Source: Squalus acanthias (taxonomy: Eukaryota). Taken from it: a DNA stretch of 64,000 nucleotides. Below, piece by piece: positions 34,801 through 44,687 of the stretch. The stretch is from NCBI GenBank assembly GCA_030390025.1, contig CM059431.1, positions 103,604,001-103,668,000 on the forward strand, given 5' to 3'. Position 1 is the stretch's first letter. Every line of letters starts with the position of its first letter. A model generated the notes under the pieces. That model was not told where the DNA came from and ran no database searches. It saw nothing but the letters and a program-made list of their open reading frames with translations. The position numbers and the translations under genes were made by a program.

Positions 34801-35981
34801 CTCACGTGAACTTCTTGAATTTACGCCAGTTCTGAACTAGCTCTAAAATTTACAACTGAGGTTTTAGGTGCAGCAGAACTCCAAGTCATATTCCTGCTGT
34901 TATTTTTCAGCATTTATTTTATGTTGCTTATTTCTCCTCACTGAAACCTAAACAAGACTCAGGGGCGAGCGTGACACCCACTGTGGATGGGCTGGAGGAT
35001 GCATTTAAAAAATAAAATTTGTTCACAGGAGGTACGCTTCCGACCGCAAATTCCCAGTCAATACATTGAGCTGGAGCAGCTGTGGAATACTGTGCACGCG
35101 AATTGATGCCTTGGATTTTAAAGTTTTATAGATTGATATCTCCATGTTCTATAAATCACTGTTGATGCACAAAACCTTCGAGTTACTTTCGCTTGACTGG
35201 GAGGCTGCTCAAGAAGCCAACATTTGCACATTGCATTGATCAAACATCGACACCATGGGCTCAGGTTCCACTGCCTAAGTTTAATTGGAAAATCCTTTGC
35301 TGCAACCTGCTGCAGCTGCACGAGGATCAAATCTCCATTCAGCTTCTGAGAAAGGCCTTCACCATCAGCGGCGCATCACCGCATGTTTATTTGCATGTGT
35401 TTGCATATATTAGCATATGTAAATGGCTTGCTGAGGCAGGCGATTTGAATAATGCAAAACATAACTTCCAATTCGGTCCCTTAATTTGATGCTGGCGGTA
35501 TGCTCAGATGCCATTTGTAGAATAAATTGGCAGTTTTCCCCATTGAGTGAGGGCATTTCATGCCACATAATAGTCTAAGGGTTTTTAAAGTCCACAAGGT
35601 GCAATATTAACACTTAGGGGGAAAAATTCAGTTGATTAGCGCCTCCCGTTAGCGCCCTAAGAGGGCGCTAATGGGGCACAAAGCAACTAGCACCCGGGCG
35701 CGGCGATGTTTGCGCTACACTACCGCCACGATCTCCTGCGCCCACAGATCGTGACGTCAGTTGAGCGTGCAATACCCCGGTAGCGCCCCGGACCGGATAT
35801 TGAGTGGCGCCCCCTGCCTTTCCGCCTGCCGATAGCAACGACAGGTAGAGGGGAACGTTTTGCAGTTGGGAAGGGACTGGGGGAGTGCTACTTAAAAGTG
35901 GCCGCTTCCTGCCTTTTTTTGTCGGCGACATTTTTGCACCACGCAGTCTGAGAGAGAGAGAGAGACTTCTGGAGAGATTCA

Positions 35982-37109
35982 ATGCTGTGTGAAGGAGTTT
36001 TGGGTACTGAGCATCACTTTGCAGTTTCATTTTTATTTGACCTTCATTGCAACGATTTAGAAGAGACTGTGGGGGCTGCACTGATTCGGGGCGTCGTCCT
36101 GCACCTGCAGAATCGGAGGCAGCAGAGACGCAGAGAGAGAGTGGCAAACATGGCTAGAGGGAGGGAGGCCAACAGGCCTCTGCACAGGAGACCTTACCCT
36201 CCCAGGGTATTCCGGGAACAATTCTCCTACATTCATTTGTCTGAGGAGCAGTGTTTGCGCAGGCTGCGCTTCAGCAAGGAGGTGGTCACTGAGCTCTGCC
36301 ACCTGCTGCAACCAGATCTGCAGCCTCAACTGAGGACCAGGACGTCTCTGTCGGTGGCAGTGAAGGTGACAGTGGCTCTGAATTTTTATGCCAGTGGCTC
36401 CTTTCAAGCATCTACTGGGGACATCGCCAATATCTCCCAGTTCGCTGTCCATTGTTGTATCTGGGAGGTGACAAATGTCATGTATAAAAGGAGACGCCAG
36501 TACATCTCTTTCCCCATGACCTGGGCCAAACAGCATGAACGCACATGTGGCTTTGCTAGGATAGCGGGCTTCCCCATGGTGCAGGGCGCCATTGACTACA
36601 TGCATGTGACATTGCAGGCACCGCATGAAAATACAGAGGTATTCCGAAACCACAAGGGCTACCACTCCTTAAATGTGCAGTTGGTCTGTGACCAGACACG
36701 TCTCATACTCGCCGTCAATGCCCGCTATCCTGGCAGCAGCCACGATGCTTTCATCCTGCGCCAGACTGGTGTGCTAGACCTTTTCCAGGCAGTGCACCAG
36801 CCAAGTGGATGGCTCCTCGGGGACAAGGGTTATCCACTCTGCACCTGGCTGATGACACCGCTCCGTGACCCCAACACCCCTGCTGAGCTGTGGTATAATG
36901 AGAGCCATATCACCACCAGGAACATAATTGAGCAGACGATCGGCATGCTCAAGCAACGGTTCCGCTGTCTGGACCACTCAGGAGGAGCCCTGCAGTACTC
37001 TCCTGAGCTAGTCTCCCTCTTCATAGTTGTGTGCTGCATGCTTCACAACCTGGCAATCCTGAGGACCCAGCCAATGCCACCAGGGATTGGTGCACCACCT
37101 GAGGAGGAG

Positions 37110-37141
<32 letters not shown>

Positions 37142-37232
37142 TGATCAGCAGCAGCACCAACGTGGGAGGGAGGCCCACAATGTTCCCAGTGCAAGGGCCG
37201 TACGTCAATGGCTGATAACAAGCCGCTTCTAG
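35982..37232 (+). CDS. Harbinger (HARBI1-like) DDE transposase
   Basis: RRLRFSKE, VALNFYASGSFQ, GFPMVQGAID, SLNVQLVCD, YPGSSHDAFIL, GWLLGDKGYP, RNIIEQTIGMLKQRFRCL, CCMLHN, acidic tail; start uncertain (first ATG at 36150). Confidence 0.9.
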
Positions 37233-37542
37233 GCCCCTACTCAGAAGATGGCTTCTGGCATGGAGAATAACATCATGGAAAGCAACCCGCACCCCCTATT
37301 GCCAGCCAAAGCTGGAATGATTCAAAGGCCAAAAATGTAAATTTTGATTACAACAACTTTTTGCTTTAGCAAACTCTGTGTGTGTCATTTATTCAGGACA
37401 AACAATTAGAAAGAAACACAACAAATCATGAACTAACAGAACTGGTTCTCACAAGATGGAGATAAACGGCAAAACAGTAAACAAATGTATCACACAAACC
37501 TCAACCTTTACCACAAACATTCCCACCATTTCTTTAGACCTC

Positions 37543-39286
37543 CTACTGTTTGCCCTTCGAGGCTGATCTCCATCCCCTGCGCACTTGCCCCCTTCCCACC
37601 CTACTGCTCCTCCGTAATGGGGCCCTAGTGGCTGCAGCAAGGCTGGTGGAAGGCTGCTGATTGTCAGAACCTGAGACTACAGATGCCCTTGAAGGACAAC
37701 CTGGACCAGCTCTGGGCCTGGAGGGCCCGGCTGCAGACTGCACCAACTCTGCATGGGCGGCAGCAGTCTGGGCTGGCTGTGTTGCAGGTGGTGGCAAGTG
37801 CAATGGGGGAAGTGCCAGTGGTGGGAGCAGGAATGCTGTCATCCTGAGAGAGGACAGCACCTTCCTGCTTGAACCACACACTGGCACTCCCATGGGGCAG
37901 TACCTCAGCATCCGGAGCAATCTGCTCGAGCACAGATTGCTGGCCTGCTGCGGCGCGATGAGAGCCCCGGGGCAATGTGGCTGACCCAGCGAGGGTGGCA
38001 GCAGTCAGTGCTTGCGTGACATCAATCTGAGACTGCATGAGAGCAGTCTGAGACTGGATGGCACCAGCCAATGACTGAATTGCAGCACTAAGCCGTTGCG
38101 TTGCATCGGCCTGTGCTGCAGCAGAGTGCTCCACACTCCTAGCCAGTCCATCAATGCTTTCGTGCACCCTTGCTATTGCACCCATGAGCTCAGTGTGCAA
38201 GCTCAAGGCCTGGCTATTCATGGCAGCGATGACGCGGTTCTCCTCTGAGTCCAGTGCAGCAGGACTCGCTTGCCTACTCGCCCTCTGGGGAGATGGCCCC
38301 CGAGCTTCCCTACCCCTATGGCGTTGCTGCAGCCCACTGGGTCCCGGAGCTTGGCCCTCATCAGACCCTACCCCCCTGCTCCCCTCCAGGGAAGGCGTGG
38401 TCCCAGTGTCGGTATGGGCTCCCTTGGGAGACGCAGGCGGTGAGGCTCCGGCTTCCTCTTCCTCCTCGCCTGGGGCGTCGCTGACACTGGTAGGTTAAGG
38501 ACAGGCTGGTCAGCTGGTGGTTCACTATCTGAAAGCAGGGAGGTACAAGAGTGGCTTTAGCGTCAGGACAGGGGGGCAGTAAGGGAGCAAGGACTGGAGA
38601 GAGTTAGTAAGTTGGATTGAAAGTGTAAAAGGCTGGTCTTGTGAGGGGCAAGTGGAATGAGAGAGGAGAGAAAGCTGATGAACATACCATAGCTGTCCCC
38701 AAGGTGGTCGACCTCTCCAGCGGCCACGGCACCTATGACCTGGCTGGCAACGATCCTGTGCACGCACACCTCCAAATCGCTGAGGGTGTGTAGGTCAGCC
38801 GGTCCTCCTCCCGTCCGCCTGTTATGAGAGAGCTTGGCCTGCAAGAAAAAGGACGGCGTCTGAGTGAATGTGCAGCCATGTGCTTGCCTGATGTGCCTCC
38901 CATAGTTGAATAACCCTTGTGTGCGTGTGTGTTTTATGAGATGGCCATAGGTCTTGGATGAGTGTTGGGCATTTGGGGTTTTTAAACCCTCTGGGACAGA
39001 GTGAAGTTGAGATGGAGGGATGTAGAGGTATTGAAAAGCAGCCACTCACCCTGACCACCCGAGTGAGGTCGTTGAACTTCTTCCGACATTGGGTGTGGGT
39101 CCTCGGCACCAGGCTTCTCGAGGAGACGTGCTGAGCCCCCTCCCTCCAGACTCTTCTGTATTCGTGGGGCAATGGCCTCCTACCACTCTGTGGGTAGAGC
39201 AGTGCTCGTCGCCGCTCCACTGCACCAACCAGAGCCACCAAGGCCCGGTCGCTGAAGCACTGAGCTCTTTCCCTGGGCCTATCCAT
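37543..39286 (-). pseudogene. Harbinger Myb/SANT-like DNA-binding gene, 3 predicted exons (39286-39050, 38838-38688, 38528-37543), frameshifted in exon 3
   Basis: MDRPRERAQCFSDRALVALV...RRVWREGAQHVSSRSLVPRTHTQCRKKFNDL; donors gtgagt and gtatgt, acceptors tttttcttgcag and ctgctttcag; exon 3 needs frameshifts near ~38495 and ~37810. Confidence 0.75.
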
Positions 39287-39645
39287 TGGTGGTTCCAGCA
39301 CAATTGATGTACAGGTCTCTCCAGGCCGAGATTCAAGGCTACAATGAGCAGGATGTGGATGGAGAGCAAGATGGCCCCTCCCCTTTAAGAACTGGCCGGG
39401 GCCAGTGTGTCTGTGTTCCATTGCTAACTGACATCACCTGAGCTTCGCCAGCGCTCTGAGTTAGCGCCTCGCTCCTCGACGTTAGCGCCTTAAGACAGAT
39501 GTGTAGCGCCTGATTTAGCGCTCCAATCACCTCCAGGGGCGATAGAGGCCAAGTCTGCAGTCGGAGGCGATAAATAGCGCCGGCGCTAAACTTGGCGCCC
39601 GGCCGATAATAGCACCCCAAACGGGGTGATACCGAATTTCCCCCC

Positions 39646-39860
39646 TGTCATAAATCGCAAGTAACAACTCAGGAAGTACTACTGGGCGGCCAGCTGGGGC
39701 GCCGTCCAGGGAGTATAAATACTCAGGCATGGGCCCACCTTGGGCAGAGACAATCTGGAAACAGGAAGCTAGTGACTGCTAACTAGACCTCCATGTTTTG
39801 TTACAAGTTGATTAAAGCCTTGTTTTATGTTCAAGTGCGTAGTGAGTCTTTATTACGTCA
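39646..39860 (+). repeat. 5' LTR
   Basis: tgtca...cgtca (TG..CA); tataaat at ~39714; attaaa at 39811-39816. Confidence 0.95.
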
Positions 39861-39960
39861 ATTTAATCAACTTGATATCGTCTCCACGCTTTGGGTGATT
39901 CGGAACAACCAGCTGCAACTCGAACCACAGAAGGGAACTAGGGCAAGAAACTGATCCATC

Positions 39961-40761
39961 ATGGAAAAACTCCTTAGACCCACTCGTCTCGACCTGGACC
40001 CGAATGCACCTGCGGCAGCGAAGGTATGGAAGCATTGGTTTCGTACCTTTAGCAACTTTCTTGAAGAATGTGGGGCGGATGTCCCTAATAAGTTAGGAAT
40101 GCTTATCAACTACGTGTCTCCTCATGTGTATGATTATATTGAGGACTGTATAGTCTATGACACTGCTATCGAAATCTTACAGCAGCTATATGTCAAGTCC
40201 CCAAATGAAATATTTGCTCGACACCTACTGGCCATAACTCGGCAGCAGCCTGGGGAATCACTCGATGAATTTCTCCAGAAACTTCGCAGGCTCAGCAAGG
40301 ATTGTAACCTTAAAGCAGTTACAGCTGAACAGTATCAAGAGGAACTAATCCGCGATTCCTTTATCAATGGAATCGCGTCCCGTTTTATACGTCAGCGCCT
40401 GCTGGAAAATAAAACCCTCAATTTACGGGCTGCTTATGACCAGGCGTGTTCCTTGGACTTGGCCAAGAAAAATGCAGACACTTATCTCCCACCACGTGCA
40501 CGGGCGGCGGCTATCTCCTTTAATGAGTCTTTCGGTAGGTCTCGGGCGGATGCCCCCACTGATGTTGACTCTACTCTAACGGACGACGACCCTACCCTAG
40601 AGGCCTTCGCTGATGACGACCCCGCCCTAGCAGCATCCTGGCAATCAGGAAGAAAGTGTTTCTTTTGTGGAGGGGCGTGCCATCACAGAAAATTTTGCCC
40701 GGCTCGTAATGTGACCTGCAATCATTGCAGCAAGAAAGGACACTTTTCCAAGGTATGCTAG
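39961..40761 (+). CDS. Gag with two Cys/His knuckles
   Basis: LRPTRLDLDPN...WKHW, RQQPGESLDEFLQKL, LIRDSFINGI, CFFCGGACHHRKFC, CNHCSKKGHFSKVC; ends at a TAG in frame with pol. Confidence 0.9.
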   Translation: MEKLLRPTRLDLDPNAPAAAKVWKHWFRTFSNFLEECGADVPNKLGMLINYVSPHVYDYIEDCIVYDTAIEILQQLYVKSPNEIFARHLLAITRQQPGESLDEFLQKLRRLSKDCNLKAVTAEQYQEELIRDSFINGIASRFIRQRLLENKTLNLRAAYDQACSLDLAKKNADTYLPPRARAAAISFNESFGRSRADAPTDVDSTLTDDDPTLEAFADDDPALAASWQSGRKCFFCGGACHHRKFCPARNVTCNHCSKKGHFSKVC

Positions 40762-43700
40762 TCACGGGCCTTTGCTAACAAGAAAGGCCGCTCCTCTAAA
40801 GTATACCGGTCGAGAGCTCCTGTTAGCTTCACAGCTGCTATCTATGGAGCTGCTCCTCCCCCAAGAACTACTGTTAAGGCTACAGTTGCCGAAGTGAAAA
40901 TTGCCCCTCCTCCCATCACGGCTGTTTTTCCCCAAAGTTTGTCCCATGCAGCCACGAAGGTTTCAGTAAATGGGCACACTCTAAGCGCGCTAATCGACTC
41001 CTGCAGCTCTGACAGCTTCATTAGTAAGCGGGCTGTCAACAGGTTAAAACTGCACATTTATCCCTCGGACAGGGAGATTGCAATGGCTCTGACGACTCTG
41101 ACCACCAATTCTTCTGGCTTCTGTCTGGTCAACCTCATCCTCAACGGCCGCACGTATCTCTCCACCCGGCTCGGAGTACTCGCAAACTTATGCAGCGATG
41201 TGCTTCTGGGACAGGACTTCCAGAAGCAGCACAAGAAGATCACTTTTGAGTTTGGAGGGTCAAGGCCGGAGCTTACCATTTCTAAGGTGCCGTTTTGTGC
41301 ACTCTCGGCGGCCTTACTCGGTGAACCCTCCCTGTTTGCCAATCTTCCCCCCCGCTGTAAACCCATAGCCACCAAATCGCGGCGCTTTAGCCAAGACGAT
41401 CGAGCGTTTATTGAGGCGGAAATCTCTCGCCTTTTAGTCGACGGTATTATCGAGCCATGTTCATCTCCCTGGCGGGCTCAGGTCGTCATCGTGAGGAATC
41501 CCTTAAAACAACATAAAAAACGTCTGTGTATCGATTATTCGCAGACTATTAATCTATATACCGATCTGGATGCCTACCCGCTGCCACGCATAGATGACAT
41601 GGTCAACAACCTTGCCAAATACAAGGTATTCTCGACCTTCGATTTAAAAAGCGCGTACCATCAGGTGCCACTGCAAGACTCCGACAAGAAGTATACGGCC
41701 TTTGAGGCCAATGGTCGGCTTTTCCAGTTTCGCCGCCTTCTATTCGGGGTCACCAATGGGGTGGCCGTCTTCCAACGGGCCATGGATGGCCTAGTCCGGC
41801 AAGAGAACTTGACGGATACCTTTCCGTATTTAGACAATATCACTATTGCCGGCCATGATCAAAAGGAGCATGACGCCAATCTTCAGAGATTTTTTGACGT
41901 ACTCCGCCGTCGCCACTTAACGTTAAACGAATCCAAATCAGTGAAGTCGGTGCCATCGGTGAACATTCTTGTCTACTGGGTGGGCAACGGTGTTATTAAA
42001 CCGGACCCAGAGCGACTTCGTCCACTTCAGGAGCTCCCTCCCCCGACGAACCTCGGCTCTCTTCGTCGGGCACTTGGCATGTTTGCTTATTACGCAAAAT
42101 GGATACCACACTTCTCCGATAAAATACAGCCCCTGCTCCATGCGAAGTCTTTTCCATTGGAAGCTACGGCTATTTCTGCCTTCAACCTCCTCAAACGACA
42201 GCTGGAGAAAGCCACGCTTCGCTCCATTGACGAAAATCTTCCTTTTGTGGTCGAATGCGATGCATCGGAGGTGGCGATCTCCGCTACCTTGAATCAAGGT
42301 GGCCGACCCGTGGCATTCCTATCCAGAACCTTGCAGGGTAGTGAGCTCCATTACCCCCCCGTCGAGAAGGAGGCTACGGCCATCATCGAGGCTGTACACC
42401 AATGGGGTCATTTTCTTGCTCGGCGTCATTTTACGCTTATAACTGACCAGCGCTCTGTGGCCTTCATGTTGGATAACCGGAGGCGCACGAAAATCAAAAA
42501 TAATAAAATTCAACTCTGGAGGATGGAGCTGGCTGCCTTTGGATATACTATCTGTTACCGACCCGGCAAACAGAACGTGGCCCCAGATACCTTCACACGG
42601 GCATTTTGCTCCTCAATGTCAACGTCGACTCTGGCGGATTTGCATATGGACTTATGCCATCCTGGTGTGACCCGCATGTTGCACTTTGTGCGCTCCAAAA
42701 ATCTACCATTTTCAACCGAGGACGTAAAGAAAACATGCTCCTCCTGTAGGATTTGTGCAGAATTGAAACCACAATTCTTTCGCCCATCAGATGGCTTACT
42801 CATACATGCAATGCAGCCTATGCAGAGGCTCAGCATAGACTTTAAAGGGCCATTGCCTTCGTCGACAAGGAACACCTACCTACTTACGATGGTGGACGAG
42901 TATTCGCGCTTTCCCTTCGCCTTCCCCTGCCCTAATATGCTTACCTCTACGGTAATTAAATGCCTCGATCAGGTCTTTTCCCTTTGCGGGACGGCCAATT
43001 TTATCCACACTGATCGGGGTCCCTCCTTTATGTCGAGTGAACTTAAAAGTTATCTCTCCCAACGGGGAATCGCCTCAAGTAGGACGACACCATATCACCC
43101 AATCGGTAACGGACAGGTTGAACGATACAATGCCATCATCTGGAACGCTGTCCGTCTGGCACTAAGGTCACGCAACCTGCCGGACCAGCAGTGGGAAACG
43201 GTGCTCCCCGACGCGTTACACTCTATCAGGTCTCTTCTCTCCACATCTACTAATGTCACGCCTCATGAGCGATTCTTCAAATTCCGGCGTCGCTCTACAC
43301 ATGGGACGTCTCTACCGTCATGGTTGGTGGCTCCAGGCCCGGTACTACTCCGGAGGTTCGTCCGGTCTGCCAAAAACGACCCTCTCATTGACGAGGTGGA
43401 GTTAACGGAGGTAAACCCCACGTATGCGCACGTACGGTACCCTGATGGCCGGGAGACCACCGTCTCGCTCCGAGATCTGGCTCCCTGCCCAACCGGTCAC
43501 ACGGGCCCGAATGATGAAGGATCCCCCGACAATGATATCAACACTCCGCACCCCTATGAAAATGACGCCCCGCCTGGGACATCGGGGGATCTGCTGGCAA
43601 CGCTACCGGATCAACTCAGGGAGCTGGACGCTCCCCGTAGGATGGCCACCCGAAACCAGGACGCCGGACAATCTCCAGTCACGACCCGGGATGAGGCCAG

Positions 43701-43806
43701 CTCAGCACCTGTGGGGACCCGCACCCGGAGTCATGATATTCCCAGTCCTCCACAGGATGATCAAGATGACGTGGACTCTACTGACTTACCGGTACGGGCC
43801 AAGTGA
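40762..43806 (+). CDS. Pol (protease, RT, RNase H, integrase), same frame as gag
   Basis: LIDSCS (protease), DAYPLPRIDD, FDLKSAYHQV, YLDN, ECDAS, EKEA, TDQ, HHCC, IDFKGP, TDRG, GQVER; no stop between 40762 and 43803. Confidence 0.92.
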   Translation, partial: SRAFANKKGRSSKVYRSRAPVSFTAAIYGAAPPPRTTVKATVAEVKIAPPPITAVFPQSLSHAATKVSVNGHTLSALIDSCSSDSFISKRAVNRLKLHIYPSDREIAMALTTLTTNSSGFCLVNLILNGRTYLSTRLGVLANLCSDVLLGQDFQKQHKKITFEFGGSRPELTISKVPFCALSAALLGEPSLFANLPPRCKPIATKSRRFSQDDRAFIEAEISRLLVDGIIEPCSSPWRAQVVIVRNPLKQHKKRLCIDYSQTINLYTDLDAYPLPRIDDMVNNLAKYKVFSTFDLKSAYHQVPLQDSDKKYTAFEANGRLFQFRRLLFGVTNGVAVFQRAMDGLVRQENLTDTFPYLDNITIAGHDQKEHDANLQRFFDVLRRRHLTLNESKSVKSVPSVNILVYWVGNGVIKPDPERLRPLQELPPPTNLGSLRRALGMFAYYAKWIPHFSDKIQPLLHAKSFPLEATAISAFNLLKRQLEKATLRSIDENLPFVVECDASEVAISATLNQGGRPVAFLSRTLQGSELHYPPVEKEATAIIEAVHQWGHFLARRHFTLITDQRSVAFMLDNRRRTKIKNNKIQLWRMELAAFGYTICYRPGKQNVAPDTFTRAFCSSMSTSTLADLHMDLCHPGVTRMLHFVRSKNLPFSTEDVKKTCSSCRICAELKPQFFRPSDGLLIHAMQPMQRLSIDFKGPLPSSTRNTYLLTMVDEYSRFPFAFPCPNMLTSTVIKCLDQVFSLCGTANFIHTDRGPSFMSSELKSYLSQRGIASSRTTPYHPIGNGQVERYNAIIWNAVRLALRSRNLPDQQWETVLPDALHSIRSLLSTSTNVTPHERFFKFRRRSTHGTSLPSWLVAPGPVLLRRFVRSAKNDPLIDEVELTEVNPTYAHVRYPDGRETTVSLRDLAPCPTGHTGPNDEGSPDNDINTPHPYENDAPPGTSGDLLATLPDQLRELDAPRRMATRNQDAGQSPVTTRDEASSAPVGTRTRSHDIPSPPQDDQDDVDSTDLPVRAK

Positions 43807-43940
43807 CCCAGGGACCAGGACACGGTCCGGGGAGACGTGCCTTCCAGTCACAAGCAGAGAGCTAAACGTCTGCGGCTATTTCTGGTCCGCCTAGTCCGTT
43901 AAAGGAAGACTGGACTTCCAAACCTTTTAGGGAGGAAGAA

Positions 43941-44155
43941 TGTCATAAATCGCAAGTAACAACTCAGGAAGTACTACTGGGCGGCCAGCTGGGGCGCCGT
44001 CCAGGGAGTATAAATACTCAGGCATGGGCCCACCTTGGGCAGAGACAATCTGGAAACAGGAAGCTAGTGACTGCTAACTAGACCTCCATGTTTTGTTACA
44101 AGTTGATTAAAGCCTTGCTTTATGTTCAAGTGCGTAGTGAGTCTTTATTACGTCA
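43941..44155 (+). repeat. 3' LTR
   Basis: Matches the 5' LTR except one visible substitution (ccttgttttat vs ccttgctttat). Confidence 0.95.
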
Positions 44156-44687
44156 CCCCCCTTTAATGTCTTCACTTGTCACTTGGAAATCGCAATACAA
44201 TTCACGAAGTAGCTGCTGCAATAACACGGGCATGGGCTCGACGGGGCGAATGGACTTCTTCCGTGCTGTAACCATTCTATGGGCGCCATGCAAAGACGAG
44301 TATTCATACCAAACAGTTCATTTTTTTGCCCATTTATATAACGGGAAACAAGTTTTCCTTTTCATCTGCGTTAAACCCAAAATTCGATGGTTGCATTATT
44401 CTTATTTTGCCTCAGTGCCCAAGGGTGGAGAGAACCTGTAGAAGACGGCCAAGTAATAGACAATAAGGTGGGGCCACATGAGGACGATTAGTGACCCTGA
44501 CATACTCCAGCATCCTGGGTCTTGGTGGAGTGCCGGTCACTTGCACATGAGCTTGGCATCAAGAACAATGTGATTGCAGAGTTTTTCTTTATTCATTCAC
44601 GGGATGTGGGCATCGCTGGTGAGGCCAGCATTCATTGCCCATCCCTAAAAAAGAAAGAAAGACTTGCATTTATATAGCGCCTTTACA

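Follow-up and report, generated by a model that had tools for sequence, protein, structure and literature searches.

The element and its family

How does a Ty3/gypsy element initiate reverse transcription when the bases behind its 5′ LTR do not offer a tRNA primer site? The question is raised by a young element of 4,510 bp (approximately 4.5 kb) that occupies positions 39646-44155 of the window, the term used here for the whole stretch of 64,000 nucleotides of Squalus acanthias DNA that was analysed (Table 1). Its TG...CA LTRs, target duplication, polypurine tract and gag-protease-RT-RNase H-integrase order are those of Ty3/gypsy, and its best solved relative is the Ty3 RT. The two LTRs show one difference, and a leader of 100 nt precedes gag at 39961. 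The in-frame stop at 40759-40761 is private to this copy, as all 61 of the other copies covering the site differ, and in other copies of the family gag and pol form one frame.

Using one anchored pattern, 498 5′ junctions of the same family were found in the genome. The median difference between the members of an LTR pair is a single site, and a matching 5-bp target duplication flanks 52 of 57 other two-ended copies; the family is young and abundant. The window copy itself adjoins a PIF/Harbinger-type DNA transposon (35617-39645), which carries a DDE_Tnp_4 frame at 35952-37232 on the forward strand and a Myb/SANT frame at 38822-39433 on the reverse strand, and as judged by eye it lies in the C run of that transposon's right terminal inverted repeat.

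Table 1. Features of the element and its flanks in window coordinates.
Feature	Position	Strand	Remarks
Left target-site duplication	39641-39645		CCCCC, inside a longer C run
5′ LTR	39646-39860	+	215 bp, TG...CA
TATA-like box TATAAAT	39714-39720	+	90 nt 5′ of the arm; putative start near 39744
LTR arm, candidate self-primer	39804-39816	+	3′ end is the ATTAAA hexamer, 39811-39816
Predicted nick	39816/39817, ± one base	+	at the end of the LTR arm
Second, weaker predicted hairpin	39817-39838	+	begins directly after the arm; modest support in the window copy
Predicted U5 stem-loop	39837-39858	+	adjoins the LTR end; folding prediction
One-base spacer, single A	39861	+	between the LTR CA and the primer site
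Primer-binding position	39862-39874	+	complement of the LTR arm; without TGG
gag, twin CCHC knuckles	39961-40761	+	terminated by the in-frame stop 40759-40761
pol: protease, RT, RNase H, integrase	40762-43806	+	without chromodomain
Polypurine tract	43929-43940	+	directly adjoins the 3′ LTR
3′ LTR	43941-44155	+	copy of arm and poly(A) hexamer at 44099-44111, without local partner
Right target-site duplication	44156-44160		5 bp

The primer-site position is complementary to the element's own LTR

The bases that follow the 5′ LTR (39862-39874) are an exact reverse complement of 13 nt within that LTR (39804-39816). This pairing had been pointed out in an earlier note on the same DNA, and the sequence and a script agree on it. 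When the bases of the LTR were shuffled, a complement of at least 13 nt at the junction arose once in 20,000 trials. The earlier note was also correct in that the LTR arm contains ATTAAA (39811-39816), a variant of the poly(A) signal, and in that no TGG primer site stands behind the 5′ LTR, the first TGG of the leader being at 39892. This triplet was considered as a primer site and rejected, since at 31 nt from the LTR it is not in the primer position.

The 13-bp stem has a duplex energy of −13.3 kcal/mol, encloses a loop of 45 nt in the window copy, and is present in both the minimum-energy and the centroid folds; over its full 226 nt, the region is no more strongly structured than shuffled sequences (z 0.11). 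All 13 pairs are kept in 94 of the 100 junctions that were read, these being the first 100 of the 498. The hairpin had been described as one that can form only at the 5′ LTR, and this stands for a local hairpin, but the arm copy in the 3′ LTR (44099-44111) could pair with the primer site over a long range.

Conservation of the stem among relatives

A protein search with a cutoff of E 1e-30 gave 1,752 relatives, with identities of 54-84% among the best 120; the named relatives come from crustaceans, cnidarians, a mollusc, a tunicate, a nematode and cartilaginous fishes. From a metagenome scan, the best 80 of 427 loci were taken; 30 of these 80 match the window Gag, and 28 have at least 120 nt of upstream sequence. 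A perfect junction stem of 10-18 bp is present in 20 of these 28 loci from the best 80 of 427, while 12 of 13 stem pairs are found in L039, L040 and L059, and 11 of 13 in L069. One further locus of the 28, L092, carries a bulged variant, and no stem was found in the other three (L050, L051 and L055), which have no recognisable LTR junction and two of which match Gag only from residue 132. The bulged stem of L092, located 5′ of the gag start at 1525, is anchored one base past the CA as judged by eye in this one sequence, and this divergent relative has neither the TAAA end nor a poly(A) hexamer.

The earlier note had singled out sister families as the place where complementarity might be lost. 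The sister families L195 and L196, from the same genome and with 81-82% RT identity, keep stems of 11 and 12 bp, respectively. A protein search of the genome for sister families gave matches dominated by the window's own family, and none of 41 pattern matches in viral contigs was a relative. The stem spans the clade down to approximately 52% RT-RNase H identity, and in an RT-RNase H tree (made by a quick method, unrooted and without named references, with nine rows dropped for short matches and row L066 a frameshift artefact) the stem-bearing rows are scattered over many separate branches of the clade. The RT-RNase H of the window element (41350-42600), compared with P0048, P0052, P0081 and P0092, shares more identity with cnidarian proteins (71-72%) than with the Scyliorhinus and Hypanus ones (61%), a difference for which horizontal transfer or old paralogy is a possible explanation.

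Covariation was assessed in 20 representatives, namely the window element, L195, L196 and 17 of the 20 perfect-stem loci, with L066, L086 and L098 left out as near-duplicates. Over the 11 junction-side positions, 219 of 220 cells are paired. At positions −5 to −9 all 100 cells are paired across 14 distinct five-base core words, and these are the compensatory changes in related families for which a search had been proposed. When the primer sites were permuted among families, 59 cells on average and at most 82 were paired, and the observed 100 was reached in none of 10,000 permutations, a figure which is not a strict probability because the stem was a condition for entry into the set and the set includes close relatives (L033/L034/L036, L038/L041 and L195/L196), whose relatedness the permutation ignores. 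Between the near-identical families L038 and L041, the one differing arm base is mirrored in the primer site.

The register of the pairing is similarly constant: a single base separates the LTR CA from the primer site in 19 of 20 representatives, and the arm ends in AA in all 20, followed by purine-C in 19. Six copies from two other Gypsy families of this genome served as a control; in all six, TGG stands 3-4 nt past the LTR and the self-stem measures only 3 nt. The tRNA-type Gypsy families sampled from the genome share only 28-30% RT-RNase H identity with the window's family. Two older Gypsy families of the genome (L200, L203, L207, L211, L212 and L213) have LTRs of approximately 120-140 bp and a TGGCG-type primer site, presumably one for tRNA-Ser.

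The arm and the poly(A) signal

Among the 20 representatives, the hexamer within the stem is ATTAAA in 11, AATAAA in 2, GTTAAA in 4, and TTTAAA, TTAAAA or AATTAA in one each; a GT-rich stretch comes after it, close to the end of the LTR. In animal Metaviridae, the LTRs are described as keeping the poly(A) signal at the corresponding place (PMC3601003). In contrast to Tf1, the arm of the window lineage appears to be part of R and to cover the poly(A) hexamer.

In HIV-1, a poly(A) hairpin hides the 5′ poly(A) signal. The stem described here would likewise hide the 5′ signal, with the difference that the same stem would double as the primer duplex; furthermore, because the LTR arm pairs with a sequence beyond the LTR, only the 5′ signal would be occluded, unlike with the HIV-1 hairpin. 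Such occlusion, raised in the earlier note as a second role of the stem, is plausible for most families, yet it is not general, as a canonical hexamer (AATAAA or ATTAAA) is paired in only 13 of 20 representatives and L034 has a separate AATAAA in its loop. Occlusion therefore cannot be the stem's only function. In L037, L038, L041, L047, L106 and L107, the stem ends no more than 6 nt from the gag start, and at this distance it could also affect translation.

Position of the arm in the RNA and a second hairpin

In the window's family, TATAAAT (beginning at 39714) lies 90 nt 5′ of the arm, in agreement with the distance of about 90 nt noted earlier, and in L195 and L196 a GATAAATA box lies approximately 84 nt before the arm's end (counted by eye). 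Transcripts started from the upstream boxes of these three families would carry 40-60 nt of RNA ahead of the arm. Of 13 LTRs that were parsed correctly, 11 gave no TATA-type box 5′ of the arm; the two that have one are the window element and L032, whose box reads CATAAA. A short palindrome carries the TATA-like box in its loop in the window (39709-39722) and likewise in L195 and L196. The (A/T)G at −11/−10 is nearly invariant, with TG in 3 of 20 representatives, and to judge from its sequence it could be an initiator, which would place the arm at the 5′ end of the RNA.

A splice-acceptor reading of the conserved AG was judged weak by eye, because of the three representatives with TG and because several others have upstream AGs. 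No splice joint at this AG was found in contigs of runs presumed to be RNA, and the one pattern tried for polyadenylated retrocopies gave no matches. A single RNA run searched as raw reads likewise gave no matching reads. The LTRs of L106 and L107 have donor-like GTAA words and pyrimidine-rich acceptors 5′ of the arm, as if an intron lay inside the LTR, and L195 and L196 have a GTAAGA word approximately 33 nt before the arm's AG.

Folding also predicts a second hairpin directly after the arm. In 13 of the 20 loops, the second and third bases past the arm have a pairing probability above 0.7, and the mean probability is 0.72 versus 0.37 in shuffles. Support for this hairpin is clear in L031, L033, L034, L041 and L047 and absent in five representatives; in the window copy it is weak, its value being reached by 33 of 100 shuffles. 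In the modelled folds, the second hairpin would place the predicted nick at a helix junction.

A test for templating among copies of the family

An arm that acts as primer should also serve as template for the primer site in daughter elements. Four arm positions were tested, and of the 11 copies that are changed there, one has a matching change in the primer site (L144, at G000:C3218). In this copy the changes of the 5′ arm and the primer site match each other and the arm of the 3′ LTR is unchanged; there are 10 LTR mismatches, and the target duplication is mismatched at two of its five bases. Because of these features, L144 may be a recombinant or the product of hairpin-templated correction in genomic DNA. 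In each of the ten arm mutants for which both LTRs are visible, the altered base is confined to the 5′ LTR, a pattern that mutation following insertion would be expected to give. A parent-daughter test on 63 copies was negative, as none of five candidate pairs had rare non-CpG variants in common; with just four primer-site mutants available, this result neither supports nor excludes templating.

Proposed priming mechanism

The pairing, its one-base register after the CA at the LTR end, its compensatory conservation and the absent TGG in this lineage together uphold the tRNA-independent self-priming proposed in the earlier note, and from the sequences compared here self-priming by the LTR arm would, on the whole, be highly probable. 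In its specific form, in which the primer-site position pairs in fixed register with an LTR arm of 10-18 nt, it is likely that this arm primes in place of a tRNA. For the version with a 5′-internal nick, which leans on analogy, the chances would be about even.

By analogy with Tf1, the 5′ end of the RNA would fold the arm onto the primer site over the 45-nt loop. The element's own RNase H would then nick between AAA and RCC, within one base, where the long stem meets the second hairpin. The upstream piece, probably a capped fragment of approximately 70 nt rather than an 11-mer, would remain annealed and give the 3′-OH, and a strong-stop DNA of approximately 45 nt would jump to the 3′ end of the RNA by way of the short segment that separates the nick from the poly(A) site. 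An R of 11-21 nt is reported to suffice in MMTV and RSV (PMC3601003). In arms that contain AATAAA or ATTAAA, the poly(A) signal would be masked by the stem at the 5′ end but accessible in the 3′ copy. The folding, nick, primer, strong-stop and transfer steps are all modelled on Tf1, in which the primer site is described as pairing with bases 1-11 of the RNA, with the RNase H cut falling between bases 11 and 12 (PMC7175516).

A fuller proposal is put forward tentatively, at somewhat less than even chances: a widespread animal Gypsy clade separate from Tf1/sushi may cut its primer from inside R, exactly where the poly(A) signal ends on its 3′ side, so that one stem would silence 5′ polyadenylation, set the nick at a helix junction and supply the primer, and the effective R would be the gap between the signal and the poly(A) site.

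Alternative explanations

Mature tRNAs end in CCA. None of the 20 representatives has TGG within 12 nt of the LTR, and the site tracks each element's own LTR, so priming by a tRNA 3′ end is disfavoured. The comparison with host tRNAs that had been suggested as a means of refutation gave a best complement of 6 nt between the first 20 leader bases and 71 host genes, which were collected by an Rfam search of the genome and ARAGORN and, being nearly all Lys, Cys, Gly and Thr, only sample the host set. The region 39600-40050 has no Rfam match at E up to 5, and thus no known ribozyme. A tRNA half or another host RNA might still prime here, the LTR match being secondary, given that tRNA halves are described as priming some copia lineages (PMC6317226) and that the tRNA sample is small; yet each of the 14 core words follows its own LTR, and with the 6-nt match and the empty Rfam search such a primer appears extremely improbable. 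It is very unlikely, too, that the stem is purely regulatory, hiding the 5′ poly(A) signal or acting on gag translation while priming proceeds by another, unrecognised means. The 13 canonical hexamers and the stems that end close to gag in several families would suit such a role, but occlusion needs no one-base register to the CA, which is nonetheless seen in 19 of 20 representatives; moreover, the stem is kept with GTTAAA, TTTAAA and TTAAAA hexamers, the AATAAA of L034 lies apart from it, and no other primer site is evident.

Two further possibilities retain self-priming and differ in where the primer would come from. With the exact geometry of Tf1, the RNA would start at the conserved A/G 10-12 nt before the arm end, and RNase H would release roughly its first 11 bases as the primer. 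This would agree with the G at −10 in 19 of 20 representatives and the A at −11 in 17 of 20, with TTAGTT-like words that resemble the initiator TCAKTY as given in PMC3601003, with shortest stems of 10-12 bp beside a Tf1 primer reported as 11 nt (PMC7175516), and with the lack of an upstream TATA box in most relatives. Conversely, TATA-like boxes stand far 5′ of the arm in three families of this genome, 18 of 20 representatives pair over at least 12 nt (12-18 bp), and many stems begin with a pyrimidine, for which reasons this geometry is considered unlikely. Covariation fits a primer from the 3′ LTR equally well, as both LTR copies carry the identical arm: the RNA 3′ end, of the same or a co-packaged molecule, would pair back and be trimmed after AAA. 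If the hexamer is a working poly(A) signal, that arm would indeed lie near the 3′ end of the RNA. However, the 5′ arm is just 45 nt from its partner and folds locally, and cutting the 3′ copy would presumably remove the strand-transfer acceptor on that RNA, leaving the 3′ arm a distinctly unlikely source of the primer.

Relation to known self-primed elements

Self-priming is treated as a mark of the Tf1/sushi chromoviruses and, to our knowledge, has been proven only in the Tf1 element of fission yeast. The 5′ arm preferred here as primer shares several features with that group. As described for Tf1 and Tf2 of Schizosaccharomyces pombe, Tj1 of S. japonicus and Tf1/sushi elements, the primer site is complementary to the element's own LTR, the core duplex is of approximately 11 bp, and the domain order is that of Ty3/gypsy (PMC7175516, PMC4600332, PMC10085805). 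Unlike in Tf1/sushi, however, a chromodomain is absent both from the window Pol, which gives no Chromo match, and from all six relatives, and the element would therefore work like Tf1 without being a member of Tf1/sushi. A further difference from Tf1 is the loop, of merely 24-68 nt across the families of the lineage. The Tf1/sushi pretzel consists of three duplexes. For the window copy a 5-bp outer helix is predicted, and in the window lineage a second hairpin, predicted to start at the nick, may take the place of a conserved pretzel. Neighbouring duplexes are reported to be needed by Tf1 (PMC10085805).

Outside Tf1/sushi, predicted self-primers are described for the plant Tcn1 chromoviruses and the TAR copia lineage, under a criterion of a complement of at least 10 bp that begins 0-5 bp after the LTR (PMC6317226). 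The window element falls within the same limits, but Tcn1 and TAR are other, plant lineages, whereas the window element belongs to an animal non-chromovirus Gypsy clade. The Gag of this element had been called Mag-like. Twin CCHC knuckles are indeed present, and together with the short LTRs and the compact single frame they presumably resemble Mag/SURL and Ciona Cigr-1, a resemblance that does not establish Mag membership. Cigr-1 stands beside the label Mag in a supplement of PMC6238403. No account of self-priming in an animal non-chromovirus Gypsy clade was found in the literature searched, the scope of which left out most subscription papers and Repbase Reports. Some non-chromoviral Gypsy families are reportedly called self-primed in Repbase entries, so that the pairing may have been noted before.

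Implications

The approximately 500 near-identical young copies in one genome make the predicted RNA ends testable from natural RNA alone. Self-primed elements of this kind would be missed by annotation that demands a tRNA site, and they would, we infer, escape control by tRNA fragments. If true, a second, chromodomain-less self-priming clade would mean either an independent origin or a wider ancestry of tRNA-free priming, and it would bear on the proposal, put forward in PMC3601003, that hairpin priming preceded tRNA priming.
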